From contig CM120643.1 in the NCBI GenBank assembly GCA_051362555.1, positions 7,192,001 through 7,256,000 of the forward strand: 64,000 bases of DNA, read 5' to 3'. Source of the stretch: Lingula anatina. Lineage: Eukaryota; Animalia; Brachiopoda. Shown here in pieces: positions 18,428-61,539 of the stretch. The notes below the pieces were generated by a model, which did not search any database, had not been told where the DNA came from, and saw nothing but the letters and a program-made list of their open reading frames with translations. The stretch's first letter is position 1. The number at the start of each line of letters is the position of its first letter. The position numbers were made by a program, and so were the translations under genes.

Positions 18428-18603
18428 AGTAGGTCCTACATGCTGACGCCACAAGATAATAATGAATATGACTCTTGTTAATTACATGTATGTGGACTTT
18501 TCTTTTAACGGCAACAATTTCTACATAGAATTGACGTCATCTCTCAGCTGGCCTATGGTAGAAATTAAAAATAAATATATATATATAGAATTGACGTAGA
18601 AAT

Positions 18604-32993: not shown

Positions 32994-33036
<43 letters not shown>

Positions 33037-33091
33037 CTTTGCATCCCCGGACTCCCCCTTCAAATAATCCTGGATCCGCCTCTGCTCACCT

Positions 33092-33312: not shown

Positions 33313-35305
33313 TGATTTATCACATTCCCTGACCCTGAGAACATAGGTGTAGACACTTCATTTGTCATGTTTGCTTGCCTAGTTACAGAGATACAGAAGT
33401 AAAACAGTTTTTCAGTAATGGCGATCCTAATTTGCATATTTAGGAAAATTGCGTAAATCTAGTTCTAACAGAAACATCTTAATAATGTTCCTCGACCCTG
33501 AAAATATAGGTTAAGACACTTCGTTTGTCATATTTGCCTGTCTAGTTCCAGAGGTATTGCAGAAAATAGGAAATCTGGCGGCCATTTTGTTTTTTTTTGC
33601 AAATTAGACCGTTAAAAGCGCAAAATTTCGCTTGGGAACCGGGTAAATCGGATTCAGCATCCCAAAATTGTGCTAATAAGCCTGGTTCCCAACTTTTACC
33701 CCAAAATGCCCCTTGTCTCTTATGCAGAGCCTTTTTTCAAAAATCTCACTAGACTATGACTGTTTTTCTGTTGTCACGACTTTGTGAGTGGATGTGACTT
33801 TGTATATGTGCGCTTTTCGTTTTACGGTCCTCATTCTGATTTTTTACGTTAATATGATACATATATATACGTTACAAAATGATGTGAAGGTATTGTTTTC
33901 TGATTTCATTGTTTGTTCTCTGTTGTCGCGACTCTGTGGTTGCGTGCGACGTTGTATATGTGCGCACGCTTGTTTTTACGTCGCTTATTCTTCTTTGTTA
34001 CGCTAAAATGATACATACGTTACCGATACATACGTTACCATGAAGCGTGTAAATATTTATTCTATTTTCATTGGTTTTCTTTCGCTTTGTGGGCCAACAC
34101 TTATGTCTTTTATTTGTGTTTCATTAAAATAGTGTTGGCGCACAAAAGGAGAGACAACCAATGAAAATAGAATAAAAAATATTTACACGCTTTATGGTAA
34201 CGTATGTATCATTTTAACGTAACAAAGAAGAATGAGCGACGTAATAACATGCGTGCGCACATAAATACATCGTCGCTGACTTGATATCTGTAAGATTCTG
34301 CAGGGAGAAATGGGAGACATGGCCTAGTTTTGTACCTCTCAAAAAGTTTGCAAAATACTTTGTCTTTCAGTGGTCCCCGATTCTTTAATATTACCAATGG
34401 TATCACTTTGAATCGCATGAAACACTTTTGGAAGTAGAAGAATCACATTAGAAACTATCACTACACTTTCTTTTTATCATTTTATTTTTATTCATCTTAG
34501 TATTGCCACTGACATATCTACTAGTGCCTCAATTTAGGTCTCATTCCCAATGACACTATTGGTCTATGTAAATCGATCCAACTCCACAGGGACTCTTGCT
34601 GAATGCAATTGGATTGGCGCACCTCCTTTTGTTTATAACATGCTTGTTTTCCATTTTCTACTCAAAGCTAGGGGGTGGTATGCTAATCTCTTAAACTGAT
34701 TACATTCAGCAAGAGTCCCCCTGAATTGATCTACCTAGACAGATAAAGCACTGAATGCACTCTTATTTTTATTGGGACTGAGTTCTTAGACCTAAATATT
34801 CTTACACAGTCATATAAATAAAACAACAACAATATATAATAATATTTAATATTTATTTATAATTAAAAGTTGGTTGGTACATTTATAATGTTGAAATGAT
34901 AATTCTAAGAAAAACAAAGGCCAAATACATTTTCAAGAAGTGCATTAAAGCTGAAAGTTATGAATACAGTTTATAAAATCATATAATTACCTAAAGTAAT
35001 ACAAGTATGATAAATAATGACATTAACTGCATTGCAGACCTTCAATTAAGTTTTCAAAGACATAAAAACTGTATTTACCGGTATAAACATCTGTACAGTG
35101 CTTTCTATTTACATTTGTGCATTAAAATGTTCCCATATTAATTTATAAGTACATATTTCATAAGGAAACAAATTCACTGCAAAGAGATATGACTTTGGAT
35201 ATTTAAAACAAAAATAACCTTGTCTTTTGATTAAATTTCACTACAGAAAAAACTAACAAAAAATTACATAGTAAGCAGCAAAAGTAATAATAAGTACTCA
35301 TCTTT

Positions 35306-36415
35306 TATAAAGACTAGTACAATGGGATGACAACTGTAGTGTACATACTAGTATAAAGACTAGTACAATGACATCACAACAGTGGTTTACATACTAGTAT
35401 AAAGACTAGTACAATGACATCACAACAGTAGTGTACATACTAGTATAAAGACTAGTACAATGACATCACAACAGTAGTGTACATACTAGTATAAAGACTA
35501 GTACAATGGGATCACAACAGTAGTGTACATACTAGTATAAAGACTAGTACAATGGGATCACAACAGTAGTGTACATACTAGTATAAAGACTAGTACAATG
35601 GGATCACAACAGTAGTGTACATACTAGTATAAAGACTAGTACAATGGGATCACAACAGTAGTGTACATACTAGTATAAAGACTAGTACAATGACATCACA
35701 ACAGTAGTGTACATACTAGTATAAAGACTAGTACAATGGGATCACAACAGTAGTGTACATACTAGTATAAAGACTAGTACAATGACATCACAACAGTAGT
35801 GTACATACTAGTATAAAGACTAGTACAATGGGATCACAACAGTAGTGTACATACTAGTATAAAGACTAGTACAATGGGATCACAACAGTAGTGTACATAC
35901 TAGTATAAAGACTAGTACAATGGGATCACAACAGTAGTGTACATACTAGTATAAAGACTAGTACAATGACATCACAACAGTAGTGTACATACTAGTATAA
36001 AGACTAGTACAATGGGATCACAACAGTAGTGTACATACTAGTATAAAGACTAGTACAATGACATCACAACAGTAGTGTACATACTAGTATAAAGACTAGT
36101 ACAATGACATCACAACAGTAGTGTACATACTAGTATAAAGACTAGTACAATGACATCACAACAGTAGTGTACATACTAGTATAAAGACTAGTACAATGGG
36201 ATCACAACAGTAGTGTACATACTAGTATAAAGACTAGTACAATGACATCACAACAGTAGTGTACATACTAGTATAAAGACTAGTACAATGGGATCACAAC
36301 AGTAGTGTACATACTAGTATAAAGACTAGTACAATGGGATCACAACAGTAGTGTACATACTAGTATAAAGACTAGTACAATGGGATCACAACAGTAGTGT
36401 ACAGACTAGTATAAA
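35306..36415. repeat. 46-bp minisatellite, 24 copies, two interspersed variants
   Basis: Unit tataaagactagtacaatg(gg|ac)atcacaacagtagtgtacatactag. Confidence 0.97.
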
Positions 36416-37019
36416 AGCTTCAGTATACTAACAGTTACTGCAAAAAGTTGTTGAACTCTTTATTTAAAAGAAATAATAATGAAATGATTATCTGCATATT
36501 ACTTATACAGAATTGCTGCAGACATCTTCTATACCTAAATATCTTTGTGTAAAACCATAAGATGAGCACTAACATAAGAAAAGGCAGCAAAGCCGCCAAA
36601 ATATACAGACACAAAACATAAGACATGTAGCAACAAAATAGTTTAATAATTTTTTCTGTGACAGCACCAAATATATACAAATATGGGCCAAGGCCTATAG
36701 GTTTACAACTTCACCAGTTTTACCATTAGTTACCGTATATAATAGCTTCTTTCATAAAACTGTTTCATTTTATAAAACTGTACATGTTAAGTATTTGTAA
36801 AAATAATCAAATCCTGCTAATTTTTAATTCAAGCAGCTTTTTACTAAACAAAGCCTCTCTGCATATTTGATTTGATTTAAAAAAAAAACATGGTTTGGTA
36901 TCTATAGTAAGACAGTCACCAAAATACATGCAAAAGTAAAATTAATAAATAAATACTGTTTTTTATTTTTTACTCAGTCAAAGTGGGGGGGGTGGGGGTG
37001 GGGGGGGGGGGGGGGGGGC

Positions 37020-39030: not shown

Positions 39031-40469
39031 TCATTTTATTTTTAACTTTGATTTTTGTATCTACAGAGGCCTCCGCACAACTCAAAATTACCAGTGAGTT
39101 GTGGCAAATTTATTCAGCTTTCTGTCAATGTTATCATGTAAAGAACTTTGCCTTAAGCTAGGAATGGCACAAATCAATTCACAGTCATGTGCATAAAAAA
39201 AATGCACGCTTGCTGTTTCCGCATTTCAGCCTTGTTTTGGCTTCACATACCTCCGTTTCCCTGACCCTTGAAAAGTGACTTTCACATGTTCACAGATTCT
39301 TACGATATTAACATCAATTTTCCTTTTACAGATCTTACTCATTAGTTAATGTTTCTGTTTATTTGTTCATTCTTGTTGCTTTCATTTAATGGGTCTTGCT
39401 TTTAATGTTTTGATATTCTTTATTTGTCTCTTTTGCCGTTTTCACTTGTCAATTTTATCTAATTTTCTACTGTCTCTACTGTGGTGCCTTTGCCAGTCTT
39501 TTGTGTTGTTTGATATTAATACTTCTTTGTCTGCCTGCCTTACTGTCCAGCCGTCAGTTCTGTCCGTATCTGTCATTGTGAGCTTTTTAACTCCATTTTC
39601 CAGTGTGGTGCCTTTGCCAGTCTTTTGGCCTGCTTGCTATTCATACTTGTTTGTCTTCCTGTCAGTGAGTGCTTGAGGCAGATAAAATGCTTGGGGAAAA
39701 TGAAACAGATTTTTCATCAAATGAACAATGGCTTCCTTTTTTCTGATGGAAATTCATCTGTGTAGTTGTAGGTGTTCTGGGACTCCACAAAATATTGACA
39801 AAAACTCTTCAGTCAAGCAAATGTGAAATGTGGTCACTCACTCATGCAATGCATAAATAAAAAAGACCACACCTACTGAGATCACACGCACACACCGACT
39901 TTACTTGAGAAGGACAGGAGAAGGACATGACTCTCTTTATAAGATATAGACTCCACAATTTATGTAAGTGTATTTGTTTTAAGTTTATGAGAATCATTGT
40001 TTTACATTATACTTTTGAATATATTATATTATATTGTATTTTTATTTTAGTGACCAGCTATCGGCTATCAACTATCAGCTTATCAGCAATTTTGAATAAA
40101 CTGAAAATAAAGCCAACCGTGTACAAAAAGGAGTTCTGTTCTTTCTAACCCAAAACAGTAGGATATGATTCAAGTATTAAACTTTTCAATTTCTACCATG
40201 TGAATAAGGCCCTGAAGAGGTGTAAGTATCCCAGCTGGGCTCTAAGGAAGGTACTGAACAATGTTGGAGCTGAAAAGGAGTCAACACCTGAGGATGACGA
40301 GAGAAGACAAGATAAGCCCAAAACCAGTATAGTGATCCCATACATGAAAGGGAGATCAGAACAGCTGAAACGAATTTATACAAAACACAAAGCAAATGTT
40401 TGCTTTAGACCTCAAAGAATACTCAAACAGATTCTTTGTCATCCTAAAGATAAGGCTGACCAAAAGGGA

Positions 40470-41210
40470 AGTTTGGCGTAGTCAAACGTTTATTTATGGC
40501 GACGGTCTGATTCTTCACAAGTTTGCAAGTAGCCTCGGATTCAATGCTACACAAGTTGTTAACATTTTTGCTCTAGTCTCGGATTCAATGCTGCATCTAT
40601 CGCGATCAGACATTATCTTGCCTGCCTTACTGTCCAGCCGTTTATTATGGCATAACTTGCCGAAAATTCGCATAAGCCTCGGATTCAACGCTGCATCTTT
40701 TGATCAGACACCCTGTCCAATCACGGACGGGGGTTTCACTTAGGTTCGCGCCTCAGCGTTTAACCAAATGAGCGTTACTATTCCTTCCCACTCTGCTTTA
40801 TACAAGGTTCTATAGTGTATGCAATTGTAAGAATAATTTTACGTTCGCCATCTTCAATTTAAACTGTATTAACAGTTACGGATTCACAGATATTTCAAGT
40901 CAGGACTTTTGGCGAACCTGCTGATAGATCGACGCATCTCAGGCTTTCCCACGAACAGAACTCCAATTTGCTACAAGTAAGTTTTTTCTTTATTTGAGTT
41001 ATTGATTTTGCGAATTATAGTAGCATGGCTGTTCTTGTCATTGGGCATTCTTTTGTACACAGGCTCCAATCTTACCTCGACCAAGGTCAGGACAACCGCA
41101 CGGCGAAAGACTTTGGATTCCCCGAATCAGTACACTGGCACGGAATAGGTGGCCATACGGTCCCTAAACTGGTCAGATACGATTTGGGCATCCTTCGCCG
41201 GGTCCGCCCG
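40470..41210 (+). mobile_element. Inserted fragment carrying the 5' part of an SGNH-hydrolase-like ORF (DIRS/Ngaro-like)
   Basis: MAVLVIGHSFVHRL..VHWHGIGG..DL..VRP motif; internal repeats of ctcggattcaa.gct; it splits the Penelope sequence between PKDK and SGAIY. Confidence 0.6.
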
Positions 41211-41574
41211 GTTAGTGGCGCAATTTACCATATAAGGTGCCAGGGTAACAAGAACTGTGAATGTGAGAAAGACTACATCGGGGAAACGGAAAGAACTTTA
41301 AAATCTAGAGTGATGGAACATAAAAGATGGAGCCTCACCACCACGGAGGTTTCTAGGCACATTCATGTAGATTATCCAGGACATGAAATTCCGTGGGAGA
41401 CAGCAAAGATCTTGGACAGGGACCCTTCTTGGTGTGAAAGGGGGGTAAAGGAGGTCATTTACATCAGGGCACATATTAACCCAAGCTTGAACAGAGATGG
41501 GGGGAGGCACCAATTGTCACATATTTGAGACAACGCAATCACCAAAGCACTGGTGAGCAGTGATCGTCCCATAT

Positions 41575-41620
41575 GACATCACACTGAAGAAGATCATAAA
41601 TGTGATCAAAAGCTCTGTTA
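41575..41620 (+). ncRNA. Minimal hammerhead ribozyme of the Penelope pseudo-LTR, probably inactivated
   Basis: CTGAAGA (41584-41590), stem gatca/tgatc, then AAAAGCTC where GAAA is expected. Confidence 0.6.
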
Positions 41621-42349
41621 GATATAGCTCTATTTTTAGTGTAGAAATTGAAAAGTTTAATACTTGAATCATGACTTCCTTTTTTGCCTATTTGCTTCAA
41701 ATAATGTTAACGCAGTTATTTGAGAATGTTGGTATAACCACATATCCTTATCATCATACCAAGTATAGCTGATCAAGAGATAAGATCCTGCACAACCATC
41801 TTTCATAAAATTAGAATTTTCTTTTGTGATTGATTTTATAGCATTTGACTATTTTTGTTCTTGGCTTTGGCTCTATTCTGGCATATGAGAAAAACCACAA
41901 TTAGATCAGCATGACAACAAATGAAACAGTGTAAATACACGACTAACAGCAATTAGTTTACCATGTTAGAGCAAAGGATACACATTAAGTCTAAATCGAA
42001 ACTATTAATTATCCTAATTTCTTCTTTTCTTTTTAACCCTTTCTAATGCCATGATGTGATTTCATGTTGGTGCTCATATCTGCAGATTTGTTTGTGAACT
42101 TTTTAACATGTGGAAAGATTTGGACATGTGAGTTGGTTCAGAAAGGTATATTCATACATTTTACCAAAAGGCTATAACTTAATATAATATATACAATAAT
42201 GCTGTGCTGATCTATTATATACAGAATAAATACAGTATTTAAAGAAATATTATACAGCTGGTAGACATATATACTTTGAACATTTTAGACTGCCAGACAT
42301 AGAGAATTGAAAGGTGTAAATGCTGATCAAGATAATGTCCAGCTGAGCA

Positions 42350-43900
42350 GACAAGGTATCTACTGACAAGATGGAAGGATGGAGAAGGATTACATGACCA
42401 CATCAGATCAGGAAAGCCCACTAAGTTCACAGACCTTCATAAGACGGTCATTGATGACAAGATGACCAGGAATAAGGAGCTGGTTGCCAAAGACTTGAAA
42501 GAAATTATCAAAGAACATACAGGTGAAAACAACACCACTTTCAAATAAATTTGTATATATCAAGAAAAAATTTTATAAACTGAAAGTTCATATAACTCCA
42601 GCGCTGTACGGATATTAAGAAAAAAATGTTGGCTGGGTGAAGAGTAGCAAAGACTACTGCCAGCTTGTGAGGATTGTCAGCCGTCTGAAAAGAGTAAACT
42701 AGTGTTGGGAGGCCCTGGCAGTTGAAGACAAATTTGAGGACATTGTGTTTCCTGGTAATTAATAACAAAAATCTACAGATCTGCATTCAAAATACAACAT
42801 GTGTTGTTGATTACGTGCATACGTTTCAGATCTTTTGTTCTGCTCACTTTGTAAATCCATATATATATATATAAGCATCGTTGTTGAAAAGATATATGTA
42901 CAAACATTTAGAATAAGTGCTCTTGTATTATATTGTTTTAATTATACTATTTGCTCATTTACTTCAGATGAGTGTACAGTGGAAATGGACTGAAACTGCT
43001 GACATATTTTCCAGAAAGTGATAAGAGATGAAAACTGAAACAACATTAGCCTGCCACGCCCACTGCACAGCAGACCTGAGCACCCGTACAAGAACCATGT
43101 ATGGGCAGGTTAGACACTACAGTGGAATATTTAATACTGATGTGAAAAATATGTTAACTTCACTTGGAGAAATGTGATGAATTAAAATTTACCGAGTGTT
43201 TTAATAGTATGAAATCCAAATAGCCAGGACTGTGAGAACTAGGCCTTTAATATAAGAGTACATGTACATCTAAACTAATGGACTGATATTATATTATCTA
43301 TTTCAAGCATTCCGCAAAAAGGGGCAACACTAATAGTTACATTCACTGGCACAATGAACAGCAAAGTGCACCAGGGCATTCTTCATGATTGAAGATTCCA
43401 CTTCTGCAAGAAAGGTAATTAAGCAGCAATCAGCAATTTAAAAAAAAAGAGTCAATCAGTATTATCGTATATAAATACGTACATTGTCAATGTTTGTTCA
43501 TCAACTGTAAGTACGTACTGAAAATAGTTAAACTTAGGTATCTCTTCTGAATTAACTACAGCTATTCTCTTGGGGCACAGGTTCCAACATTTTTTTAACA
43601 ACACAACAACTGGTTTCAGACGCCCCCCGAGAGCCCTGATTTGAACCCTATCAAGCTGCTGTGGGCTGAACTGAAGTATTTCATCAGGAACTGGGCAAAA
43701 CCAAGAACGAAGATCAATTGGTGGCTGCCATTGAAGAATTTTGGACAAACGTGGATCAGGCTAAGTGTGTTAAGTACATTTACCACATTCAGAAGGTAAT
43801 GCCTGAAGTAATGTACTTTTTTGTTTTGTTTTGTTAAATATACTTATATTCTGCTCAGAGATGGTAAAATAAAAATCTACATCTTATTCACGTTGAAGGC
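42350..43900 (+). pseudogene. Intron-containing Tc1/IS630-like transposase remnant
   Basis: RSGKPTKF..; DECTVEM; HPYKNHVWAG; [27 protein letters not shown]; segments are separated by GT-AG introns and contain stops. Confidence 0.75.
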
Positions 43901-44864
43901 AGAGCCACAGGTTATTAAATATAAGTTACTGCCGTGGTATTTTTAGGCTTTAACTTTGTAAATATGTACAATATCGTAAATATGTTTTTTTTAAACAGCC
44001 CTGTACTTTTTATACAGATTAATTTATATCTATTTTAATTTGTATAATACTTTGCTTTGTATATATTTGTATAACCAATGCTGTATATATATGTTTATAT
44101 ACAGGGCATTTGATGTAAAAATTGCAAAATTAACAATTTGGAAGTGGTTATAGAATAAACCTTGTAAAAACCATAATTGCTACATATGATGATTGATATG
44201 TTTAGAGAAGATTTGGATTTTTAAAAAGATTGCATTAAAGATTGAGTTTCCCTAAGACATACATGCTTATTTTTTAGTTTAGAGAAAAGCAGAGTGGTTG
44301 GTTTGGCCAACTGGGCAAGAACTCCAGGCATGTGACTGTGGTGATCTTCTGAAACGATTCTAATGAAGTATGTGTTAGTATACAGTTAAGTAATAATTTC
44401 ATTGTTAACTGTTATTATATTGCTAATATGAAACCTGCTATTTCTTTGTATTTGTATAGCAGACAAAACATATATTTACATGTATTTGACCTTAATTTTA
44501 TTTTATTTCAGCATCGAACACTTACAATTTGCAACATGTGAAACAGGAGTAGTTTGCAGTTGCCTCCATTTTGGAGAACACACTTGAAAATGTTGCTAAA
44601 GGGGTTCCTCAGATTAAACAAGCCAGAATCAGGTACCTGTCCATTTTATTTACAAATGCTTAAATGAAAACAAATAGTATGTTTTTCATTCTGTTGTGTG
44701 GGAATAAGGATCAATGCATTTCCACTCAAGGTAGATGTTTACAAAAGATAGTTACTTTGACATATGTATTACTAAATTCATTTCTGTAAGTGTACAAGTC
44801 ATGCATTACCATTGCCTTTTAAATATATGAGGAAGCTGACTTCTGTCAAAATCATATACATGAC

Positions 44865-45235
44865 TATGGGCGGCCAAAAGGGCAAAAAATCCTGTCGTCG
44901 ATTCAGTTATGTTTCGTTGATTCACTGCCTTCCCATCGATTCAGTTTCAAGTTTAAACGATCCTGTCATAAATTCAACATCTACTTTCGTCAATTCAATT
45001 GTCAAACATTTCTCATCTATGGTGTATTAAAACCAATGCTGTCACTATTCTCGTCGATCGTGTAACTATTCTCGTCGATCGTCAAACTATTTTCGTCAAT
45101 CGTGTAACTATTCTCGTCGATCGTCTAATCTCGTCGATCGTGTTACTATTCTCATCGATCGTCCAACTAATCTCGTCGATCGTGTAACTATTCTCGTCGA
45201 TTGTCCCATCGATCGATCGTCAGAGGGCGCTGCGG
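44865..45235 (+). repeat. Left TIR with an internal array of ~21-bp tcgtcgatcg repeats
   Basis: Reverse complement of 54232-54595, apart from a ~55-bp left-only insert at ~44986-45040 and small differences in the repeat array. Confidence 0.95.
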
Positions 45236-45275
45236 GGCTATCCACAGCCACATGACTATCATGTGACATTTCAAA

Positions 45276-47903
45276 ATGGCAGGCAACGAGATCGATTACG
45301 GAATACAGTTTGTAAGGGAAATCATAACACTTTCTCAACAATTGGAAAACGCAAGTCGGCTCGACGATGCTTTATTATATAGACTAGAACATTTATACCG
45401 TCGCATACTTGATGTTACCGAACTTGAAAATGCAGCATTTCCACTGGCCAGGGCAGCTGAGATGCTTAGAGAATATTTTCAACAACAACAGCAAAATGAT
45501 GATAGCAGACGATCATCTTCCACAAGAGGAAGGCCTACTACGACAACGACTGGAAATCCTGGGAGACCCAAGTTTGAAATCAGTCGTAGGCAACTTAAAT
45601 TCTTCATTGGTAAGTTAGATAGGCCTCTAATCTTCTATTTATACATGTACATGTAATATTTGTAGTCTCTAGTTATTATTATTTTTCATTATATAGTTTT
45701 TAGCCTATTAAGTATTATAATAGGCCATCTATCTATCTTCTAGCCTAGGCCTATAGAGTCCGTGTACCCAGGCCAAATGATATCTTTTTTGAATGCTTCA
45801 AAATTAAAAAATTAAAAATAATGGGTTCTTCAAGATCATTAGACATTGTCAACATATTTTCAAGAATGTATTACCATTATGGTAATACATTCTTGGAGAA
45901 ATATAGAATAAGAATTTTTAGAAATATTTTGAAATTCACTTTTTCCAGATGTTTTATTAGAATGAGAGAAGAACTACAGTGCATAATAAGAAACCAAGGG
46001 CTATCCACAGCCACTTTTCAGCTTGCTGAAATCACATTTTCATTTATCCTTCAAAACTCTTTTCAGGAAAATTCTATGAATTTTTTCTAGAACATGTAGC
46101 TTTCTCTGTCATTGATAGAAATTATATCATTTTTATTTATTCTTTCAGACAATGGTTTTACTATGAAGGAAGTAGCTGGTTTGTTATGTGTGTCTCTCCG
46201 GACTGTTAAGTACAGGCTTAATGAGTATGGATTGAAAGTCAGTCAGAAATTCACTGACATAGAAGATGTTGACCTTGACAGTAAAGTGCTTCATTTTCTT
46301 CAGAACTTCCCAAATGCTGGTAGGTTGGTTGGTTAATCAAGAAAAACTGAATAGCAATCAATAACAAATTTATGTTGATGAACCATTGAAACTTTTTGTG
46401 CTGTTGTAGGTTACAAGTCAGTTCATGGACACCTAACTTCTGAGGGGATAAATGTTCAGAGGTGTCGGGTACGAGAGGCAATGTTAAGGGTGGATCCAGA
46501 GGGAAGACAGTTGAATGCCCTCCGTCGTTGCATTAGACGAAGAAGTTATAGTGTTCATTCCCCTATGACCTTATGGCATATTGACGGGAATCATAAACTT
46601 ATAAGGTGAAATAAGAAATAGGTTTGAGGTATTACTTTGCTATTAAGTTGACTCTATCCTAAACCGGTATACCTGCAAGCTTGGTACATAAGTAAAGGAG
46701 AGAGAAAGTTTGAGGCACGCAGACTGCAGGCAAACAACCGATAAAAATGAGTTTATGTAATTTTATGAAGCTTATTATTTTCAGATAATATTATTCTTTA
46801 CACATCTTATTTTAATTGATAAAATCTATGTTAATTTTTTACTATGTTCTAATGCATTTTTAGGTGGCGCATTGTTATACATGGTGGCATAGATGGCTAC
46901 AGTAGACTAATAGTCTATCTCCATAGTAGTAACAACAATCTGTCCGAGACTGTTTTGACAGTATTTAAAGAAGCTGTTGATAAGTGGGGACTCCCTTTAC
47001 GTGTACGTGCTGATAAGGGGGTTGAAAACAGAGGTGTTGCTAGTTACATGCTCTCACATCCATCACGTGGTCCAGATCAAGGCGCCTTCATTACTGGAAG
47101 ATCGGTCCACAACTCGCGTATTGAAAGGCTGTGGAGGGACGTGCACGAAGCTGTCGTTTGCCAATACCAGGACTTATTCTATCATTTAGAGGAGACTGGT
47201 TACCTCAAACCTGATGATGAAATGGCTCTTTATGCCCTTCATTTGGTATATCTGCCACGGATAAACAAAAGGCTGAATCAGTTTGTGCGTATGTGGAACA
47301 ATCATAAAATTAGGACTGCTGGAAATAAAAGTCCCCTGGATCTCTTCCTCCGCGGCATGAATGCCATTGCAGGAGAGGAAGGTGTGATTACCCACGAGTA
47401 CTTCCACGAGGCAAGTACAACCAGCATTGTATTTTGAACAGGTCTTCTTTCAGATTTAACAGTCATACATTGGCAATTCTTTCTAGATTGTCAAAAAATG
47501 TGCCATAAGAAATTTGGTCTCTTAGCCTGGGCGAGGCATACAATTTTTTTTATCTAAAAACTACCTTGACTTCAAAAAGAAATGTTGGCCCTAGCATGGT
47601 CCAACATGATGTTATTACCAGTTATCAACCCTGATCAGTAACAAAGCACATTATATATCACTAGGATTTCTTAATCTGATGCTTCCTTTTCAGCAATCAA
47701 ACTATGGCTTTGACCCTGACGCTCCCATTCCAATGGAGGAAGTTGACGAGGGTGTGATTGTTCCAGCAATTCAAGTGAATTTTGGTCCTGGAGTTGTTGA
47801 GAACATTGATTTACCAAGTGAAGAACAGGATCGATTTGGCATTGAAAGTTACAAAGTAGTTTTAAGGCACTTGAGTGAAAGCCAGAATCAAAATGTTAAC
47901 TAA
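45276..47903 (+). CDS. DDE integrase-like transposase, 5 exons, ~485 aa
   Basis: Exons 45276-45609, 46149-46319, 46410-46605, 46864-47410 (GC donor) and 47694-47903 join in frame. HTH-like FTMKEVAGLLCVSLRTVKYRL; catalytic WHIDGNHKL, RADKGVEN and HNSRIERLWRDV. Confidence 0.9.
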
Positions 47904-48152
47904 TCAAAGACTATCTGGCATATTTGACAAAGCATCAGCACTGCATTTATTGCATTATCAAAGTGTAGAACATTTAAATAGTATAACAATGTTTGAGTTT
48001 TTGAGGTTAACTTCAAAGGGTAATTTTTTAATAACTATATCTAATTTTGCTACTTTAAACTACATGTTTGCATGATTGTACTTTATATTGATAAAAGTAA
48101 CCATATATTGTAGACCTGGTGCAATGTCTCTTACTTGTCTCTTATCTTTAGC

Positions 48153-51100
48153 TCAGTTCAGACCGAAGTAAGTTGATGAAAATGCTATATCAAATTTTTT
48201 GAAAACATGGCTTTTAAATTCCTCACTGCCCTGATTATCTGCTCTATTGAGCCTTGGCAAAATCAGTCTATTGAGGCAAGTTTGTGAGGTAGGGAGACCA
48301 CCTGGACTTTCATTGAAGATGATGCTTGGTCTAGGGTTGAATCCTGCAGCTGGAATTGTTGACAATCCTGTAGCAAAGGCAAGAATATTGCCAAGATTGA
48401 CCTCCACATTATCAACCTTTCTTGGTGAATCTGAATTAAAAGTAATGAATCAGACTGATTTTGTCAGAGAAAATTGTGGCAATGTTGCCTGGTATAATGA
48501 CTAAATATTGCTATTTTCTGCACCAAATCCCTCTAAAAAAGTAAGATGCTGAGTATCCTTTATTATAGATACTCGATCTATCTAATTTCAGAGAAGAGAT
48601 AAAAATTTCTTGTAGCAGTTGTTTAAGGCACTCTACCCTTCTGAAGGAAATGCAACAATAAATACCAAATAAATCTATTAAAATGATATGCCTCTTTCGA
48701 ACAATAGACAGCATAGAAGTTTTTGGGCATCTGAGTTTATTTTTATCAATTTACTTAGAAGATTATACTTACGTTGAAGTGACAACAGGTAATGTGTAAA
48801 ATAACGCAAAACTTCAATTTCATTACGTTTCTGGTCTTCATTAGTAGACATTTCTGGTTTGAAGAGTTGAACAACATTTCCAGCTGTCAAGTTTGTCTTT
48901 TTTGAGGTGAGCAGATGGCGAATGCATGGCCGAATTGCTATAAGCTGAAAATAATTGACAGAAGCAAAACATCAAGAGATTGCAGATTTATCCTATTAGT
49001 TTAAGCACTTGTGACAAATTAGAGTTAAATAACTGTTGAAGGCCAACAGATATGTCACCTCTAGTTGTATTAACAACAAGGTGTGGTATATTTCAGATTT
49101 GGCCAACTTGGTTGGATGAAACCTACTAAGCATTTTCAAATCATTGTGAATCACAAATTAGTCAACCTTATTATGGGGAACAAAACCAGATCACTAACCA
49201 GCATATGAAATGGAAAAATACCTGTATAAATCCACACATCTTCAGACCCTGCAACATATACTGGAGCTCGGGAGAATCACTCGTGTCCTCAGTTGCCAAC
49301 TTGAATGCTGTGTCTTCATTTAAAAAAGAAGGTGAGGGTCCTCCTTGGATAATTGATAGTGCTTTAAAGGAGAAAGTATGGTTTAGAACTAAAGATTATA
49401 GTGGAAGATGTGGCAAACTGTTTGTGCCAGGAGTCAATGATTGGGGTCAACATCTTATTGGCAGTAAATTGACATGTTATCCTTATGCTAGACATGGGAT
49501 GCTAAATAGTGGCATTCTAAACAAATATGAACATGCTCTCCTAAAAACCATATAATATTATGTTGTTTCTATACTGTAACATTTACCTATGAGCACACCC
49601 ACTCCGCGATAGCTTTTGGGCTCAAAACCACTGGTTGGTTTGCCATCTGTAAAATAATGATCTCCAACTTCCTTCATCATAATTCGAAAAAATTCTCTCC
49701 TTGGACCACCAAAGTCGGCTGCATCTTCACCAAGGAAGAATACAGCAAGAGGTAACCTAGGATTGAAGTCAGGCAGGGATAGAGTCTGCAGACCATCTTT
49801 CAAGAGACCAGTGTCACGGGCAACAAATATTTCAGTTGTTTCACCTTCCAGTACTTGGTCGTCCCTGAACAGATCTAATGCTCGACCAAGCATGAAGTGC
49901 TCCCTAAATGCTGTCAGAATTTCCTTATGATTCTCATTATCAGGACTGAAATAAAAATTAAAACCTTTTATCCATCAGCTATTTGCTGGGACTGCAGGTT
50001 CTCCTGCTAACCAACAAGCAAAAGTGATTAGTCAATTTTATTACAATTAGAAGTTTTTGATATTATCAAACTTTGAAGTGTTTGATTAAATCTGCTTTAA
50101 ATATTTAGATGCAGGTTGTTTTGTGAACTCTGCTCTGCTCTGTCTCACAACATATCAAGCTCACTTGCTCATAGTGAAGGTGAAGAATTTACGTGAGTCC
50201 TCTTCAATGAAAATTTCATCGCCGAGATACTTACATCAGGTCATTGATAGTTTGAACTATTTGAGAACTACTATGGATTGTTTGCATAACACTCTCAGGT
50301 ATACACTCTGGTATGAGGTCTGGTAGACCATCATTATCATCATCCTGGAAAAGTTGATAACTGAGTAAAATTCATTTCATAAAATAATCTTGAATATTTA
50401 ATGGTGTTAGGCTTTGATTCACTTATTTTTCCAGTCTTGATTGCTAACAACTATATACACCCTCTGGGGATATTTCCTAAAATAGCTGTTAAAGAAAGGT
50501 ACTATAATTTCAGTGTACAGAATGAATAAAGTGGCAACTACCTTGTTAAAATGTCGCCGATTGACAAATGGCAAAGGAAGATGATGTATACCTATACGGG
50601 GGGAGGGAGGATTCTATAGAGAACTAGATGTGAGATCACCGAGTTACTGATATATCAGAATTATTCCACTTGAAAACAGGCTTACCTCTATCTCAATCAA
50701 GTCCTGGATCTTGATCTCTGCTCTGTTTTCCTCATTGCTGGTCTGGTTGGGTATTCTACCTGGAACGGGCTCATCACTGGATTTCTCCACAACATTTTCA
50801 GTGAAAACATGGAATGGAGGGGAAACCTGAAGGAGGAATTATGGTTTAGTTCATCAGTGTTTCATTTAAAGGGATAACTCTTCGTATGAGATCTATATTT
50901 CACAATAAAAACATTGTGAACAACTCATAGAAATATAATATATTGTTTTATGACAAAAACAGCAGTTATAGCTATTATTCTGATATCTGAGATTGTCTTT
51001 AGACCACGTGACATCCATTGATGGCTATACTCTGTTATAATCTCTTAAGAGATTATAACAAAAACAAACTTTTTAGAAAAACAAAACAGGGACTAACTTT

Positions 51101-54100
51101 GAATGTAAAAATGGATTCATTAACCATTGTTAAGTATGGAAAAATTGTTGTTTACTCCAGGAAAATTCATTTTTTGGCCAAAATGAAGAGTTATTATCCC
51201 TTTAACTAAACCAAAATGCAATCTTTCTCGCAGATTTAAATTTGCTGAAATATCTTTCCCAGATCATCTAATTTTCAACTGAGGCCTATTCTCAATTCCT
51301 GAGCCTCAGAGTTTTGCTTTCAGTTTTAATGAACTTTTCTAAAGTTCAGAATAAAAAGATTGCTTACTGAATTATCATCTGAATCACCACTTTGGCCATC
51401 ATTAGACCCACCATTCTCCTGTAAATAAAAATAAAAATACTACAGGACACCATTTATAATATTGAAATTAGCATTACAGATTTGTTTCCTATTAGGTCAC
51501 ACCAAAATAAAAAAGAGACTCTTATCTATTTTTGCATACACCTTAAACACAGATAAAATACAAATTGGTTCAAACACAAGCGAACATGAGCATGGCTGGT
51601 ACTCACACATATTTCCAAGTGATCCCGTAGTTCACTGAGCTCTAGTTTTTTGCCACAACTGTCGCATGAAGTAGTTTGCACTTGGTCCTCTATAGCAGAT
51701 GTCACAATGAGGCTTTTTTGGATTGGTCTAATGTATATTTTGGCACTTACGGTGCTGGTCATTATTTTTATCTGTTCTGCACTGCAGAAGCCAACATTAC
51801 AAACAACAAGTTTGTTTCGAGCACTTTTATCTGTAACCATGAATTCCACATCGTTGTTGCACTCCGCCAATCTTGGATAAGCTCTGCAAAATGTTAATAC
51901 GTATTGTAGCAACTTAATAAGATTTCATTTAGAGACCTTCGTTAATTCCCCCAATTGAATTTAATCTATGATTATCTATGATTGAACCAATCCTTAGATA
52001 GTATATCAAAAATTCCAGATTTTCAAAAATGCAACTGGTAATAACAGAGAACCCAAGTTAATTATTTTCATACTCATTGTGATTAGGCCTACTTACTTTT
52101 GAAGGACATTTCTCACTGCATCTACAGTTCCTTGTGCTGGTAAAACAATCTTTTTTTCCCCTAAACCATTCTCTAAGAGAAGATTTTTCTCCACAAATGA
52201 TACAGGAGGCGAGTCACTATTTCTATCACTCAATACAACAAAAGTTTTTGTAAATGGGCGTCCACAAGCTGAAAGATGCAATATTGAATTGACACATGAG
52301 AGTGGACCATTATATGCTGAACCCATTGGATATTAAAAATGAACATCTGCTTTAAGGCAGAGATCAAATAAAAAAGTTACATGATCAGACAGGGTTGAAA
52401 ATTTCTATTCATTGGGATTTTCATCTACAGAGTAAATAAATTGAGCATACTCACTAGCATTTGATGAGGTGGACCTGCTTCTTCTAGAAGTTGAGTAGGG
52501 CTGATATCTTGAGAATGACCTGTCTACTTGAGCTGGACGGCTCTGGAGATAAAAAATAATTTTCATTCCAGGTGGCTGAAGTATTCATCATCCTCATACC
52601 CAGTACATAGAAAAGTTGGAGACAATCAATTTGATTGAAGGGCACTTGCTACAATCAACAACAAATACTGACAAAGATGTATAGCATTGTAAGCCAGTTA
52701 TGATCACGAGAACACAAGTAGGAAATGAGGATGCCATATTGAATGAAACACAAAAATATTCCTACAAGGTTAGATTCAGTTTCTTGAGACAAATGATTTA
52801 CATAGTATTTTAAAATTTGGATTTGGGGACATATCAATATGATTCATTACCTGCAGAGATCTAGGCCTAAAAAGGTTCCTATGTTCCTCTTTTATTCTAG
52901 TCTCCCTACTAGTTTCCCTACTTTGCCTTTGATTTGGAACAGGTCTTTGAGTTATTTCAGGGATATCAACCTGTAAAATGAGTTAGGTACACACTTATAA
53001 ATATGATATGTAACTACATTGTAGACTAAATAGCTGGCCTTATTTTTCAACAAAACATATAAAAAGACCGATTGTGCAGGCCTATTCTTTTTGTTAAATG
53101 TCTTATATTATTCATTCATTTATTTTCTTGATTATTTTTAGGCGTAGCTAATTCACTTTAAATCAAAATCAGGCAGTTGACAGTGTGGCAGCAGAGCCAG
53201 AGAGGGCTTTTCATTGATTAGGTCTATTACCATTTTGGTAATAATAGGTTTTACGGGTCCCTATTTAATTGTTAATTACTCGACCAATTTTGGCCCAATT
53301 TTCATAAATTTGGTATCGTTAGACTCTACAAACCATTTTCTTGACATAGAATATAATTATTATGTCTTTAATATGTTTTTAATGACATTTTAATGAGTTA
53401 TTACAGGTACTCTACCAATAGAAGAAATGCCAGCGCGTCATCTATCGGCCACATATTGTAGCACGAGGCTCCCAATGGGGGTGCGTCAAAGTGAAATTGC
53501 ACAATTTTTAGTAGTCGGGGAAATGAAAAGACAAGAAATTAAGATAAAATAGGCAAATTAAAAGAAACACTTGCTTTTTGCCTATTTTTTCTTAATTTTG
53601 TCTTTTCCTTTTCTTTTTATTTCCCCCGAGTACTAAAAATTGTGCAATTTCAGTTGACTCACCCCCATTTGGAGCCTCGTGCTACAATATGTGGCCGTGG
53701 CCTTTCGTAGAGTACCTGTAATAACTAATTAAAAACGTCATTAAAAACATATTAAAGACATAATAATTATATTCCATGTCAAGAGAAAGGTTTGCAAAGT
53801 CTAATGATTCCAAATTTGTGAAAGTCGGGCCAATATTGGTCGAGTATTTAACAATTAAATAGGGACCGTAAAACCGACTATTACCTCAATTTTTTGAAAG
53901 TTTCTTGCAAAACACAATGAGGAAGATTTTAATAAATCTAACCCAGCCTACCTCCTCTCTCTCGTTTTCCTGGTCACGAGAAGTAGAAGTTGTGGATCTG
54001 GACCTGTCAACAACACCATTAATAAGTGTCACCGCTTGATTGAGCAGTCCTCCAATAGAGTGAAGTAAGGTTCTGTCGATTGACTCTGTTCGGTTGCGGG

Positions 54101-54104
54101 ACAT
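48153..54104 (-). CDS. Zinc-finger + HECT-domain E3 ubiquitin ligase (G2E3-like HECT), 12 exons, ~686 aa
   Basis: Exons 54104-53952, 52970-52851, 52542-52455, 52268-52097, 51883-51607, 51418-51368, 50826-50686, 50344-50235, 49945-49587, 49361-49222, 48944-48773 and 48430-48153 are all GT-AG and phase-compatible. Motifs GEDAADFGGPRREFF, ILAFATG, LPTSQTCLNRLILP (catalytic Cys) and a terminal -4 Phe (FGLN*). Confidence 0.85.
50866..51205. mobile_element. Kolobok-like MITE (TTAA TSD) in an intron of the HECT gene
   Basis: ttaa|agggataa ... ttatccct|ttaa; inverted homologue of 18076-18427. Confidence 0.75.
53237..53885. mobile_element. ~650-bp palindromic (foldback) element in intron 1 of the HECT gene
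   Basis: Arms ggtaata..ggttttacgg.tccctatttaattgtta and taacaattaaatagggaccgtaaaacc..tattacc pair along nearly the whole length; centre at ~53570. Confidence 0.8.
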
Positions 54105-54231
54105 TTTATGTATTCTAGTTGCATAAAAAGGTGTAACTCGAGTAATCGATAACTATGGAAATGTATTCACCTCTGATGGCAGCCAACTTAAAAATTACCG
54201 CGCGACAGACAGACAGAAACACGTGTTACTA

Positions 54232-54595
54232 CCGCAGCGCCCTCTGACGATCGATCGATGGGACGATCGACGAGAATAGTTACACGATCGACGAGATTAG
54301 TTGGACGATCGATGAGAATAGTAACACGATCGACGAGATTAGACGATCGACGAGAATAGTTACACGATCGATGAAAATAGTTTGACGATCGACGAGAATA
54401 GTTACACGATCGATGAAAATAGTTTGACGATCGACGAGAATAGTTAGGCCTACACGATCGACGAGAATAGTGACAGTAGATGTTGAATTTATGACAGGAT
54501 CGTTTAAACTTGAAACTGAATCGATGGGAAGGCAGTGAATCGACGAAACATAACTGAATCGACGACAGGATTTTTTGCCCTTTTGGCCGCCCATA
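54232..54595 (-). repeat. Right TIR of the IS3EU-type element
   Basis: Reverse complement of 44865-45235. Confidence 0.95.
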
Positions 54596-55003
54596 CATGA
54601 CATATGTTATTTGTATACTAACAATCATCCTATTATAATTACTTGTAGGGGTCGATGTCTGCAGTGAGCAGAGAAGAGTTGGAAGATATTATAGTGGAGG
54701 TGTGTGATTGGTCCTCTGCAAATGGCATGGATATAAGAACACTCCCTGAAGAAGAGTGGAGATGTCCCCCCAAGATCCCTAGCCATCTATCTATAAGTGA
54801 TCAGCCAATGAGGTGTGTGTGCGAGCATTGTTGTGGGAATGCCCAGTGAGGCTGAAAGGATTTGTTGCAATCAACAGCATAGTTTCAGGAGTGTAGATCC
54901 AGTAAGCATAAAATTCATCTGTTGCTTTTATTTTTAGATGGACACAGAAGACAACAGGTTTCTTTGCAAATCTTATTCTGCCATGTACTAAGGTCTGGAT
55001 GTT

Positions 55004-55380
55004 TTGCCACATAATTTATCAAACATTTACTTAAAATTTGACTCCCTTTCTTTTGGTTCAGACTACTTTACATCAAAGTTTAATAGAGAAGACAAGAACT
55101 GTACCGTTGTGGCGTCGTGGGCCGGTGATGATGGTGAGATTACAGATTACAGAGATCTCAGGCCTGGGTTGATTTCTTATTTCATAAAGCACATACTTTT
55201 CATCAATGGTAGGAATATTCCACATATATTTGCAGTTGTGAAGTGGTACAAATGCATTGATAGGCAAGACATTCCTCCCCCCTTTTTCGCCATGGCTCAG
55301 AAACAGTTTTATCATGCCAGGTGCTGCCTCTTTCATTCCCAAGCAAAGAATTCTAGAGAAATGTGCCCATGATTAGCTGA
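55004..55380 (+). pseudogene. C-terminal fragment of an EnSpm/CACTA-like transposase
   Basis: ..VVASWAGDDGEI..LRPGLISYFIKH..HIFAVVKWY pattern, which I associate with animal EnSpm-like proteins. Confidence 0.55.
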
Positions 55381-57307: not shown

Positions 57308-58962
57308 GGCATTTTGTCAGCTGTAATCTTTTGGATGGAACTAGAGAACTTATAGAAAATATTTGTTTCCCAATCAAAAAGGTACAACAATTTTGCCGTC
57401 TTCTCATGAATGGCATTACTTTTCAATCTCTTTCATACAGGAACTGTGCAGACCGCAGAAAATTTCTGATACGTGTAATTATTTTTAATAAAGCCGCGGG
57501 CATGGGCACGTAAGTAGTTATGTAATTGTTCCTATCACTTTAATTGATCCCAGTCAACTTTAATTTTATCTCACTTTATTATCCTTTATCGAAAGTTACA
57601 ATAATTTGCAGCCGTGCGGTCTGTCACGCCAATATATAAGGTATAAAACCAGGCAGCCACCTAGAAATAAATAGTTATAGATTTTATAACTAAGCTGTGG
57701 TGTGGCATTGCTTTTCTCTCCTGGCATAACCCAAGTCAGGAATCGTGGACTGAACCTTGAATATTCAGCAGACGGATTAGAGACCTTTGAGTAAAATATA
57801 CCCTGCAGTATCTGTAAGAACTCAGTACAGATCTGGCACGACAGCTCGCACACAATTCCATTTTTGTTATCATGGAAGAGAACCAGCACTCTGTGAAGAT
57901 GGCAGAAGGACACAACAATCATGGACAAGACTCAGTTATCCCGCCAGGTATGGACAGGTTAGTGTATACTTTGGACATTTTGGCTCAAGATTTACAAGGT
58001 TAGCAACACAGAGCAATTAGACAAAGTAGGATAGATAACGCATCATCAGGCAATAAGACCGTGTGATGGAAACATCCCTTCGGAGGTCTGGTCTTACATA
58101 GACGAGTTAGACGTCTTAAAAGTGAAATCTAGGGGGCCAAGTAACTTTTGCGTTCTGTTAATGGGCAGGATATATTCTAAAGAAGAACGCCTTGACCCAA
58201 CGAGGAACATGGGGGCTTAAGAACAGCGCAATATAACAAAAGACCAATCTGCTCACCACAAAGACTAGACTATACATATATCAAAAACAGCATTCAGAAA
58301 TTGTATCCATCTGTAATGAACGAGGAGCTATGGTGACGATGTATCTCAGCGATGAACACTGCCAATCGAAATTTAAGGTGTTCACAAAAGATCAACGTAT
58401 AGGAAAGCCAACACGTGTTTCCTTACAATACGCCAAAGGCTTAGTTTGTCCGCAGATAAATCACATTCTTGGCTGATTGAGGCAATGTTTGAAAGAGCAA
58501 CCAATTAACTTACAGACCATGGCGCACTGTGGTAGAAAATGAAGAAGAAAAGCAAACAATTATCAAACATATGCACAGTGACAGTGACTGAAATTTACAG
58601 ATATTACTATTCTTTTACAATCTTTGGATTTATATTACTGTGAATGGAGTGTTAGTGATATGCATATACTGATATTACAATGTACTACCAGGTGCTACCA
58701 GGCTGTGTATTTTCATAAAACACTTCCCAACAAGAAAGCACAAAGCAAAGCCCTTACTATTTAATGTTTAACATGTAAGTAAATGATAAAGAAAGTAGAC
58801 CCCATGTTAAAGTAACATCAAGTAAACTATTGTCCTCACTCTCTGAAATACAAGTGGTGTTTAATTCTGAAGTCCCATATTATAATATTGCCCTATTGGA
58901 ATGGTTCGTATGATAATCATGTTTTTGGTTGGTTTTAATGCGATTTCATTTTGAATTGTCAG

Positions 58963-59275
58963 GTGGCGAGCGCCAAAAAGGCTCCTGTCAGACCAAGGAA
59001 GACAGTTTGTGGCTGAAATAAATACAGAGGTTTGCCGCTCCCTCAGCATAGAGAGGTCTGTGACAAGTGCCTATCATCCTCAGACCAATGGTCTGGATGA
59101 GAAGACAAACCAGACACTGAACACTCCATTGAGCAAGCTAATTAATGAACACCAGAACAACTGGGATATTTATTTGGAGGATGTGGCATATTCAATCAGG
59201 ACACAAAAGCAAGCGTCCACAAAGTTCACCCCTTTTTTTCTAATGTTTGGGAGGCACCTTAGGTCTCTGAGAGAG
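58963..59275 (+). pseudogene. Ginger/GIN-type (Gypsy-integrase-like) transposase exon
   Basis: APKRLLSDQGRQF..TSAYHPQTNGLDEKTNQTL..WDIYL..TPFFLMFGR bounded by AG/GT; a further exon-like piece starts at 59746; no RT or LTRs seen. Confidence 0.8.
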
Positions 59276-59959
59276 GTAATTCTAGATTTAAAATTTTAAT
59301 GATTAAGTAGACAACATAAATTTTGGAACATTTTTATTATTATTTTCTGACATCTCAGTAATAGATTTGTTACATCACTGAAATTGTGTTTGAAAAGCAG
59401 TCTATGTGTAGTCAAAATGTGTATTAGATATGATATGCTTTGGTCTTGGCATTTATATCAAACCTATTTAATCTTTTAAATCATGCAGACCTCTTTTAGA
59501 TTGTCAGTTATTTCTATATACGCTTAAATGGCCGCACTACAAATATTTTATTTACCTACTTATTTTTTCATTCTTCTGATTATTTTACTTAACAGGCTGG
59601 CTGCTAGTCATGCTACTGATCTTGTCTTTACCTTAAATGAAGTAGGAAGCATGAAACATCCCGTGTTCAAGCTCCCGTGTTCAAAAAAATAACATGATGA
59701 ATTTTAAAGAGGTTTTCTAATTTCAATTGTGATTTCCATTTTTAGATGAATGCCAAAGATGGTGAAAGTATTGAAGACATTTCTGTAAAAGATGAAGACA
59801 TGGTCAACCATAGAGAGGCACTGCTAGATGTCACCAAGAAAGTTTACAAAGTTCATCTAGTTAATTTACATTACAGCCACCATGCAATCATTCAACTGAC
59901 ATCATGTAAAAGGGCAAGGCATTTAATTATATTAAATTATGATATTTTAGGCACAAAGA

Positions 59960-60320
59960 AAAACTGCAGGACCTAACATGGAGAGAGGTGTTTGCCATCT
60001 GCAGGAAAGATTATAGTAAGGCTTTGGCAATTATTGAACTGGTCCTCAGTCTACCAGCCAGTAGTGCGGAGAATGAGAGGGCATTCAACAGAATGAAGCT
60101 GATCAAAACAGCCCACAGGTCAAGCTTATCCACCAGCTCACTGGACAGCTTGATGACAGTACGTCTGTTATCCAAACCTATAAGGCAGTTCAATCCTGAT
60201 GCAGCAATTGATGATTGGTTTTCTGCGACCAGCATGCAACCTACATTCAAGGATGGCTTAACTAAGAAAAGCAGAAAACTGCAGGCCATTGCTACCTCTA
60301 GTACCAGTCAGGCACATGAA
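59960..60320 (+). pseudogene. hAT C-terminal dimerisation domain remnant (ZNF862-like)
   Basis: LVLSLPASSAENERAFNRMKLIKTAHRSSL..LM..FNPDAAIDDW. Confidence 0.85.
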
Positions 60321-61062
60321 ACAGACTTCTTGTCACTACTTCACCTACTGTCTTCAGGAGTGTTGGATTGTACCAGGATCTGTTTTACAGACTTCTTGTC
60401 ACTACTTCACCTACCGTCTTCAGGAGTGTTGGATTGTACCAGGATCTGTTTTACAGACTTCTTGTCACTACTTCACCTACTGTCATCAGGAGTGTTGGAT
60501 TGTACCAGGATCTGTTTTACAGACTTCTTGTCACTACTTCACCTACTGTCTTCAGGAGTGTTGGATTGTACCAGGATCTGTTTTACAGACTTCTTGTCAC
60601 TACTTCACCTACTGTCTTCAGGAGTGTTGGATTGTACCAGGATCTGTTTACAGACTTCTTGTCACTACTTCACCTACTGTCTTCAGGAGTGTTGGATTGT
60701 ACCAGGATCTGTTTACAGACTTCTTGTCACTACTTCACCTACTGTCTTCAGGAGTGTTGGATTGTACCAGGATCTGTTTAACAGACTTCTTGTCACTACT
60801 TCACCTACTGTCTTCAGGAGTGTTGGATTGTACCAGGATCTGTTTTACAGACTTCTTGTCACTACTTCACCTACTGTCTTCAGGAGTGTTGGATTGTACC
60901 AGGATCTGTTTACAGACTTCTTGTCACTACTTCACCTACTGTCTTCAGGAGTGTTGGATTGTACCAGGATCTGTTTTACAGACTTCTTGTCACTACTTCA
61001 CCTACTGTCTTCAGGAGTGTTGGATTGTACCAGGATCTGTTTTACAGACTTCTTGTCACTAC
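60321..61062. repeat. 66-bp minisatellite, 11 full copies plus a partial (three copies are 65 bp)
   Basis: Unit acagacttcttgtcactacttcacctactgtcttcaggagtgttggattgtaccaggatctgtttt. Confidence 0.97.
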
Positions 61063-61539
61063 TTATATTAATTCAGTCAAGGCAGCGTGCAGTTTGGTCA
61101 ACCTAGAGGATGTGTCTTGAATCAGTACCTGCAGGAAGGGAAAGGGGATGCTGGTTGGAGTGCAAATCACAAGGCGTCAGTTAGGAGAATGGCAAAAAAC
61201 TCTCTATGGATTCGCTAATGGATGTGGAAGAAGAAGGTTTGTAATTTGAAGCTTTTCTTTTGAGATTATAGGTGATAATGCAGTAACAGAGATGTGTACT
61301 GCAGACAAGGGCTTTATCACACAGTACCATAATGAGTTTTCTCTGCAGGCCTTTCTAGGTTCTTTCACAAATATGTTGTGTTTAAGTAGTCATGTGAGTT
61401 TACCTAAAAACATAATATTTTTGGGTATTATATAACATTGTCTACACTTTGTGCTATTACTCGATATGCATAGTAGAAGTTCATTAGAAATACAGCATGT
61501 ATATCAGATTGTTAGTTAAATTGTGTTTATCTATAGATC

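Follow-up and report, generated by a model that had tools for sequence, protein, structure and literature searches.

A complete IS3EU/GingerRoot transposon of Lingula anatina pairs its transposase with a shortened HECT gene that may act on the element's own transposition machinery

Analysis of a 64,000-nucleotide stretch of the brachiopod Lingula anatina genome (assembly GCA_051362555.1, contig CM120643.1, positions 7,192,001 to 7,256,000; hereafter the window) revealed a transposon in which two genes face each other. Gene A, on the plus strand, encodes the transposase, and gene B, on the minus strand, encodes a protein that combines a ubiquitin-like (Ubl) domain, a C2HC zinc finger and a short HECT domain, the mini-HECT. 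Both reading frames are uninterrupted, and the same pair recurs in related elements. The mini-HECTs keep the catalytic Cys and the C-terminal Phe of HECT ubiquitin ligases (E3s) and are missing a subdomain of the N-lobe. From the sequence, we propose, at about even confidence, that the mini-HECT of this IS3EU/GingerRoot transposon is charged with ubiquitin in a non-standard way and transfers it onto the transposition machinery of its own element. The superfamily was already known; what is new here is the Ubl-C2HC-mini-HECT architecture, which lacks the region binding the ubiquitin-conjugating enzyme (E2).

The IS3EU-type transposon occupies positions 44865-54595 (9,731 bp) and is flanked on both sides by CATGAC, a 6-bp target-site duplication (TSD) whose match is not expected by chance (p ~4e-4). 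Its termini are TATGG..CCATA. The terminal 28-mer is found nowhere in the window but at the two ends, and in none of 100 shuffles. The terminal inverted repeats (TIRs) differ at a single position of the outer 121 bp and are 97% complementary in the inner 192 bp, with a divergent middle part of ~50 bp; each contains 10-12 subrepeats, spaced mostly at 21 bp. The two genes converge, their stop codons lying 249 bp apart. The element is complete and of the cut-and-paste type, and a second copy was not found within the window. Its features are as follows:

44859..44864: left TSD, CATGAC
44865..45235, plus strand: left TIR, 371 bp, TATGG end, 10 subrepeats
45276..47903, plus strand: gene A, IS3EU transposase, 485 amino acids (aa), 5 exons
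45276-45609, 46149-46319, 46410-46605, 46864-47410, 47694-47903, plus strand: gene A exons
48153..54104, minus strand: gene B, Ubl-C2HC-mini-HECT protein, 686 aa, 12 exons
54104-53952, 52970-52851, 52542-52455, 52268-52097, 51883-51607, 51418-51368, minus strand: gene B exons 1-6
50826-50686, 50344-50235, 49945-49587, 49361-49222, 48944-48773, 48430-48153, minus strand: gene B exons 7-12
51712..52260, minus strand: Ubl (beta-grasp) domain of gene B, exons 4-5, fold predicted on the relative L066
51607..51675, minus strand: C2HC zinc finger, UBZ-like (zf_C2HC_14 E 3e-5, 24.2 bits with a cutoff of 25; zf_UBZ E 0.07)
48156..50263, minus strand: mini-HECT domain, Cys646 codon at 48278-48276, gap at ~49320-49252 in exon 10
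54232..54595, minus strand: right TIR, 364 bp, 12 subrepeats
54596..54601: right TSD, CATGAC

The first-pass annotation of this DNA had described TIRs of ~365 bp, a perfect CATGAC TSD, TAT..ATA ends, two inward-pointing genes with stops ~250 bp apart, uninterrupted frames of 5 and 12 exons with the D-D-E residues and the HECT Cys intact, and a fit to the IS3EU superfamily. All of this was recovered, the two frames as gene models backed by homology. The element has TAYGG..CCRTA ends, a 6-bp TSD, TIRs longer than 30 bp and an integrase-like DDE core without an HHCC finger, and the core motifs of gene A match those of IS3EU-1_CVi, IS3EU-4_DR and IS3EU-1_SK, a comparison made by eye rather than in a tree with Repbase sequences. 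Because ends, TSD and transposase motifs all fit, the element is assigned to IS3EU/GingerRoot.

The gene A protein consists of a helical N-terminal domain, a helix-turn-helix (HTH) and a DDE core with the triad D227-D284-E321 (codons starting at 46583, 47012 and 47123). Its Pfam match was rva_4 (E 2e-65), with the HTH upstream of the core, and the Pfam scan gave no zinc-finger match. The spliced frame contains no internal stop. Intron 4 is of the GC-AG type, a point absent from the earlier annotation, and we accepted exon 5 despite the GC donor because homologues align there. The best-scoring named relatives come from corals, a brachiopod, molluscs, echinoderms, ribbon worms and a hemichordate.

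In gene B all 11 introns are GT-AG, the G+C content is mostly higher in exons (0.37-0.47) than in introns (0.28-0.35), and residues 123-686 share 30% identity with a Lingula protein, which backs the gene model; searches for homologues by words were weak (1 and 5 matches). The Ubl domain of its relative L066 was predicted to fold with a predicted local distance difference test (pLDDT) score of 90, and its top fold match was the ubiquitin-like domain of TBK1 (Z 8.1, root-mean-square deviation (rmsd) 2.4, 81 aligned residues). The matches were tied among beta-grasp families, including SAP18, RAWUL and USP7 domains, so that no specific family can be assigned; Pfam gave no name to the domain. Of 19 long mini-HECT relatives, 18 gave a match to it at E <0.05, 13 of them at E <1e-5. 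An N-terminal helix precedes it, with a SAM domain in place of the helix in some relatives, and an acidic linker joins the C2HC finger to the HECT domain. No PHD/RING match to Pfam was obtained in the 8 gene B exons scanned or in full-length relatives, and chromatin-reader domains were seen neither in gene B exons nor in close relatives.

The HECT C-lobe of gene B was recognised (E 2e-8), with Cys646 near the end of the 686-aa chain and FGLN as the C-terminus, placing Phe at -4. The N-lobe/C-lobe fold and the catalytic Cys with its C-terminal Phe are those of the HECT family, and what gene B lacks is a stretch at the expected place of the small N-lobe subdomain. Mini-HECTs have 14-19 residues where full-size relatives hold 89-92 (~73 fewer); likewise, the profile spans 93 positions against 162 E6AP residues over the same stretch, and in gene B the motif-to-Cys spacing is 198, against 261-265 in full-size HECTs of other elements. 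The modelled Lingula relative P0125, to which gene B aligns throughout, superimposed on the HECT domain of HUWE1 with Z 22.6, rmsd 3.1 and 278 aligned residues (317 model residues over 383). The gap begins just past the residue aligned with E6AP chain position 127, which we take to be the expected start of the small N-lobe subdomain.

As this subdomain is reported to host the E2-binding site of HECT ligases (PMC3077247), we infer from its position that the gap corresponds to the E2-binding subdomain. Read in this way, the missing subdomain would rule out standard E2 docking. The earlier reading as a HECT E3 holds as regards the catalytic Cys, but a conventional E3 should not be presumed, since the E2-binding region is absent. 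A missed exon as the cause of the short HECT was considered and rejected, because the gap is internal to exon 10; it also recurs in 32 of 35 measurable relatives, a proportion that is not a family frequency, the 35 having been retrieved with a mini-type exon as query. Mini-HECTs carry a nearly invariant GRxL..EGxT loop that is absent from the 5 full-size relatives checked. Every one of 30 mini-HECTs has the T-C of the C-lobe Cys motif, and the FG motif at the C-terminus is kept as well. On C-lobe sequence alone, mini-HECTs form one clade (support 97/96, from 98 columns, few for 61 rows), found in bivalves, a brachiopod, echinoderms, corals and a tunicate; sister elements have full-size HECTs in the same slot.

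The recurrence of the gene pair was analysed in 97 loci with transposase relatives: 80 metagenome stretches, the best among 483 confirmed ones, and every one of the 17 loci in genome records. A direct tblastn search matched gene B in 18 of the 97; HECT pieces were located by profiles iterated on these loci (E up to 1e-5). A HECT piece lay downstream on the opposite strand in 42/97 loci, and in 28 of the 41 with at least 3 kb of downstream sequence, while 34 upstream flanks of equal length, used as control, gave 2 minus-strand and 3 plus-strand matches. Clustering at 90% transposase identity produced 76 clusters, 33 of them informative, of which 22 had a convergent HECT gene. Of ten relatives bounded by element ends, nine contain the HECT gene, the exception being a deletion derivative of 1.66 kb. 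The TSD was 6 bp in 8 of the 10, 5 bp in one and not found in one. Two annotated genomes agree with this linkage: the close Lytechinus pictus relatives of transposase and HECT (XP_063959776/XP_063959777) have consecutive accessions, and those of Lingula (LOC106178413/LOC106178403) are ten accessions apart, on a scaffold of equal length.

Of 39 linked C-lobes, 37 retain the catalytic Cys; the other 2 appear split or frameshifted. Most pairs of loci were saturated or too sparse for the ratio of nonsynonymous to synonymous substitution rates (dN/dS), and aligned pieces may take in intron edges; in the sole unsaturated intact pair, L015-L021, the transposase ratio was 0.11 and the cargo ratio 0.32 over 75 codons. 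Between diverged families, the proportion of nonsynonymous differences (pN) is far below that of synonymous ones (pS), as in the L002-L057 cargo (0.27 vs 0.74). Pairwise distances of transposase and HECT were correlated (Mantel r 0.24, p 0.0016, n 28; HECT alignment of 71 columns only). This comparison took in the window and 27 cluster representatives; 7 loci whose C-lobes were split or whose pairing was unsure had been removed, as had those with short or stopped cores. In a quick tree, the 5 transposases paired with the mini-HECT clade separated from 10 paired with full-size HECTs (Shimodaira-Hasegawa-like approximate likelihood ratio test (SH-aLRT) 91; 0/500 shuffles).

Because related transposons in many genomes carry the same pair, gene B is likely to serve the transposon, as the element's own stable partner and not a one-off capture. 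The first-pass annotation had proposed such a two-component mobile unit, to be abandoned if other copies lacked the HECT gene or if dN/dS was near 1. The two-gene unit is well supported by the end-bounded elements and the clusters, the only end-bounded copy without HECT being the deletion derivative, and the co-phylogeny that it had suggested examining is present, if modest, with the mini-HECT transposases grouping together. The selection argument stands for L015-L021 and the diverged families, and near-identical copies, with cargo ratios of 0.3-1.07, count against it.

Four loci depart from this arrangement: HECT cargo is divergent from or in tandem with the transposase in L087:1993-8938, L089:3007-5071, L090:11014-13566 and L097:10741-13836, for which element ends were not found. 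A single-exon, divergent full-size HECT marks the subgroup L020, L039, L053, L062 and L037, which holds together in the trees of both genes, and the cargo exon at L012:6147-6350 may encode a CUE/UBA ubiquitin-binding domain, which it resembles by eye. The 17 matches in prokaryote genome records (L081-L097) have split, intron-like genes and microsatellites, and are probably mis-binned eukaryote contigs and not prokaryotic elements. No relatives were found in viral contigs.

Transcription was assessed in 4 RNA runs labelled as the same species, from 3 studies, with 6-25% of each run sampled; the reads may derive from sister copies. Gene A was covered on one strand at a depth of 0.3-2.8 in runs X12 and X14, and at zero in the bin wholly within intron 1, which provides weak support for its expression. 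In the same two runs, plus-strand RNA extends into 47940-48539. The first plus-strand polyadenylation signal 3' of the gene A stop is at 48435, within gene B intron 11, and the 3' untranslated region of gene A may overlap gene B exon 12 antisense (region 47904-48435).

How might the two proteins work together? The transposase would bind the TIR subrepeats, cut and paste the element and leave the 6-bp duplications. An E2~ubiquitin donor could be held by the C2HC finger, by the Ubl domain or by the GRxL..EGxT loop peculiar to the clade; alternatively, a host ligase could hand ubiquitin over to the mini-HECT. The retention of the Cys and the C-terminal motif throughout a multi-phylum clade argues for chemistry at the Cys. 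Ubiquitin would be placed on the transposase or on chromatin at the element, either to clear the spent complex or to limit transposase levels. A target within the element's own machinery is suggested because the gene tracks transposase lineages and does not move freely.

A number of observations weigh against this proposal. Loss of the E2 site would be equally expected of a pseudo-ligase, and the ligase activity, substrate and binding of the gene B protein are predictions. Co-inheritance would follow from physical linkage alone and names no target. The pairing is not strict: of the remaining informative clusters, 4 have the HECT gene in another orientation, 1 has only a Ubl (upstream) and 6 are without cargo. 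The Mantel correlation is modest, with nearest neighbours agreeing in 6 of 28 rows, the SH-aLRT value of 91 is under the level starred by the tool, and near-identical copies show cargo dN/dS of 0.3-1.07. Gene B RNA on the matching strand is only a trace, with a depth of at most 1.3 in X12 and 0.7 in X14, RNA is almost nil in X9 and X15, and no splice-junction reads were listed among the sampled reads, a high-copy repeat within gene B having filled the junction table.

Could the mini-HECT be an active ligase directed against host defence, degrading or modifying factors of silencing or chromatin and thereby keeping the element expressed? We regard this as rather unlikely, with arguments in both directions. 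TET/JBP genes of fungal IS3EU elements are proposed to counter methylation silencing; those genes, however, shift between superfamilies (PMC12730594), whereas the HECT cargo tracks transposase lineages. The structurally nearest named host family, G2E3 (template-modelling (TM) score 0.81), is reported to act as an H3K14 E3, through its RING (PMC13061254). The Ubl fold resembles the chromatin-linked SAP18, RAWUL and USP7 domains, no better than it resembles other beta-grasp folds, and a chromatin reader was not found in gene B exons or close relatives.

That the protein is no ligase at all and works as a ubiquitin-binding scaffold, a trap or a hydrolase-like variant, for example shielding the transposase from degradation, seems to us improbable. 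The clade-wide lack of the E2-site region and the presence of a UBZ-like finger and a Ubl domain are what such a protein would show; on the other hand, ubiquitin transfer needs the C-lobe Cys and the C-terminal motif, both of which are retained, and full-size HECTs occupy the same slot in sister elements. Active deubiquitinases of Helitrons have been proposed to protect transposition proteins (PMC9741609), in line with the shielding role. Finally, an old passenger without benefit to the element, or one kept by host selection, would fit the trace-level expression and the captured gene fragments often held by GingerRoot elements (PMC6839031), and is very unlikely given the same slot in 22/33 clusters, the kept Cys, a pN far below pS between diverged families and the existence of deletion derivatives (L096), by which a useless 6-kb gene would be lost.

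Going further than a ubiquitin transfer onto the transposition machinery, we put forward, tentatively and as a doubtful case, that a marine-invertebrate IS3EU clade has an active ligase of a new type: a HECT without the E2-docking subdomain, charged via the Ubl, the finger or the loop, acting as a dedicated second transposition component on its own transposase, and giving rise to many of the annotations called 'G2E3-like' and possibly also to the HECT domain of vertebrate G2E3. Domestication of G2E3 from such cargo would be a lead only. A conserved ubiquitin-enzyme partner would offer a direct handle on the ubiquitin control of cut-and-paste transposition, and a HECT that keeps its Cys without an E2 site across phyla would represent either a novel way of charging or a pseudo-ligase of a new kind. 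In addition, many invertebrate and fish gene models named 'G2E3-like' or 'HECT-type' may be transposon cargo, inflating ligase counts.

Two younger inverted-repeat elements are inserted in introns 1 and 6 of gene B:

50870..51201: nested miniature inverted-repeat transposable element (MITE), TTAA duplication, high-copy, gene B intron 6
53237..53885: nested hairpin-like inverted-repeat element, ~650 bp with arms of ~300 bp, gene B intron 1

The MITE, which we take to be Kolobok-like, has a second copy in the window at 18076-18428 (81% identity) and is abundant in RNA on both strands; no TSD was found for the hairpin-like element. Outside the transposon, 54992-55372, 58955-59299, 59943-61106 and 40149-42548 hold remnants of other transposable elements: what looks by eye like part of a transposase, a piece of an integrase (rve E 2e-4), a hAT dimerisation domain (E 7e-6) and, again by eye, sequences resembling retroelements and Tc1. 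The earlier description of the other coding remnants as fragmentary fits the open reading frames at 40-60 kb, the part examined. Another TIR element lies at 30595-33713 (arms ~480 bp, 94-95% complementary) within a 300-bp direct repeat pair (29375-34263), and a 46-bp tandem array of ~29 units at 35168-36525.

With respect to known systems, IS3EU families are bounded by TA..TA, mostly have 6-bp TSDs and belong with GingerRoot to a single lineage (PMC10045372), in a superfamily described as barely studied (PMC11934779). The element described here shares these ends, the TSD, the TIRs and the DDE core. As here, rust-fungal families, with TAYGG..CCRTA ends, have a second gene opposed to the transposase (PMC12730594); the fungal partners are an alpha-kinase and TET/JBP, not a HECT. 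HECT and ubiquitin are unmentioned in the parts of the IS3EU/GingerRoot literature examined, and the Repbase entry texts and the Kojima 2019 review may note them. Likewise, we found in the open literature no description of a HECT-IS3EU gene pair, which Repbase entries, subscription journals or bioRxiv supplements may hold.

Gene B shares with the HECT E3 ligases (E6AP, NEDD4, HUWE1, AREL1) the two-lobed fold, the D-x-G-G-P-R motif of the N-lobe, the catalytic Cys and the C-terminal Phe. It differs in an N-lobe ~70-75 residues shorter at the E2-binding small subdomain, and in the added GRxL..EGxT loop, N-terminal Ubl and C2HC finger. RAG1/ProtoRAG also links a DDE transposase to E3 activity, that of the RAG1 RING, in a convergent two-gene layout; there, the RING is within the transposase chain, the lineage is Transib and the TSD is 5 bp.

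The closest named host family to the mini-HECT model is G2E3, the vertebrate PHD/RING-HECT protein, with a TM score of 0.81 against 0.73-0.76 for canonical HECTs. Unlike gene B, which is not its orthologue, G2E3 has a PHD/RING region, and it is reported to have arisen late, after the chordate/echinoderm split (PMC2837046). The suggestion that many 'G2E3-like' annotations of invertebrates are such cargo is supported in part: three proteins of that name, P0279, P0335 and P0336, have the cargo-type Ubl and no PHD match, and would belong to the family by their domains. Finally, the VTD/OTU deubiquitinases of Helitrons provide another case of a ubiquitin-system enzyme on an animal DNA transposon, which, unlike gene B, removes ubiquitin, is fused in the RepHel open reading frame and travels on a rolling-circle element (PMC9741609).

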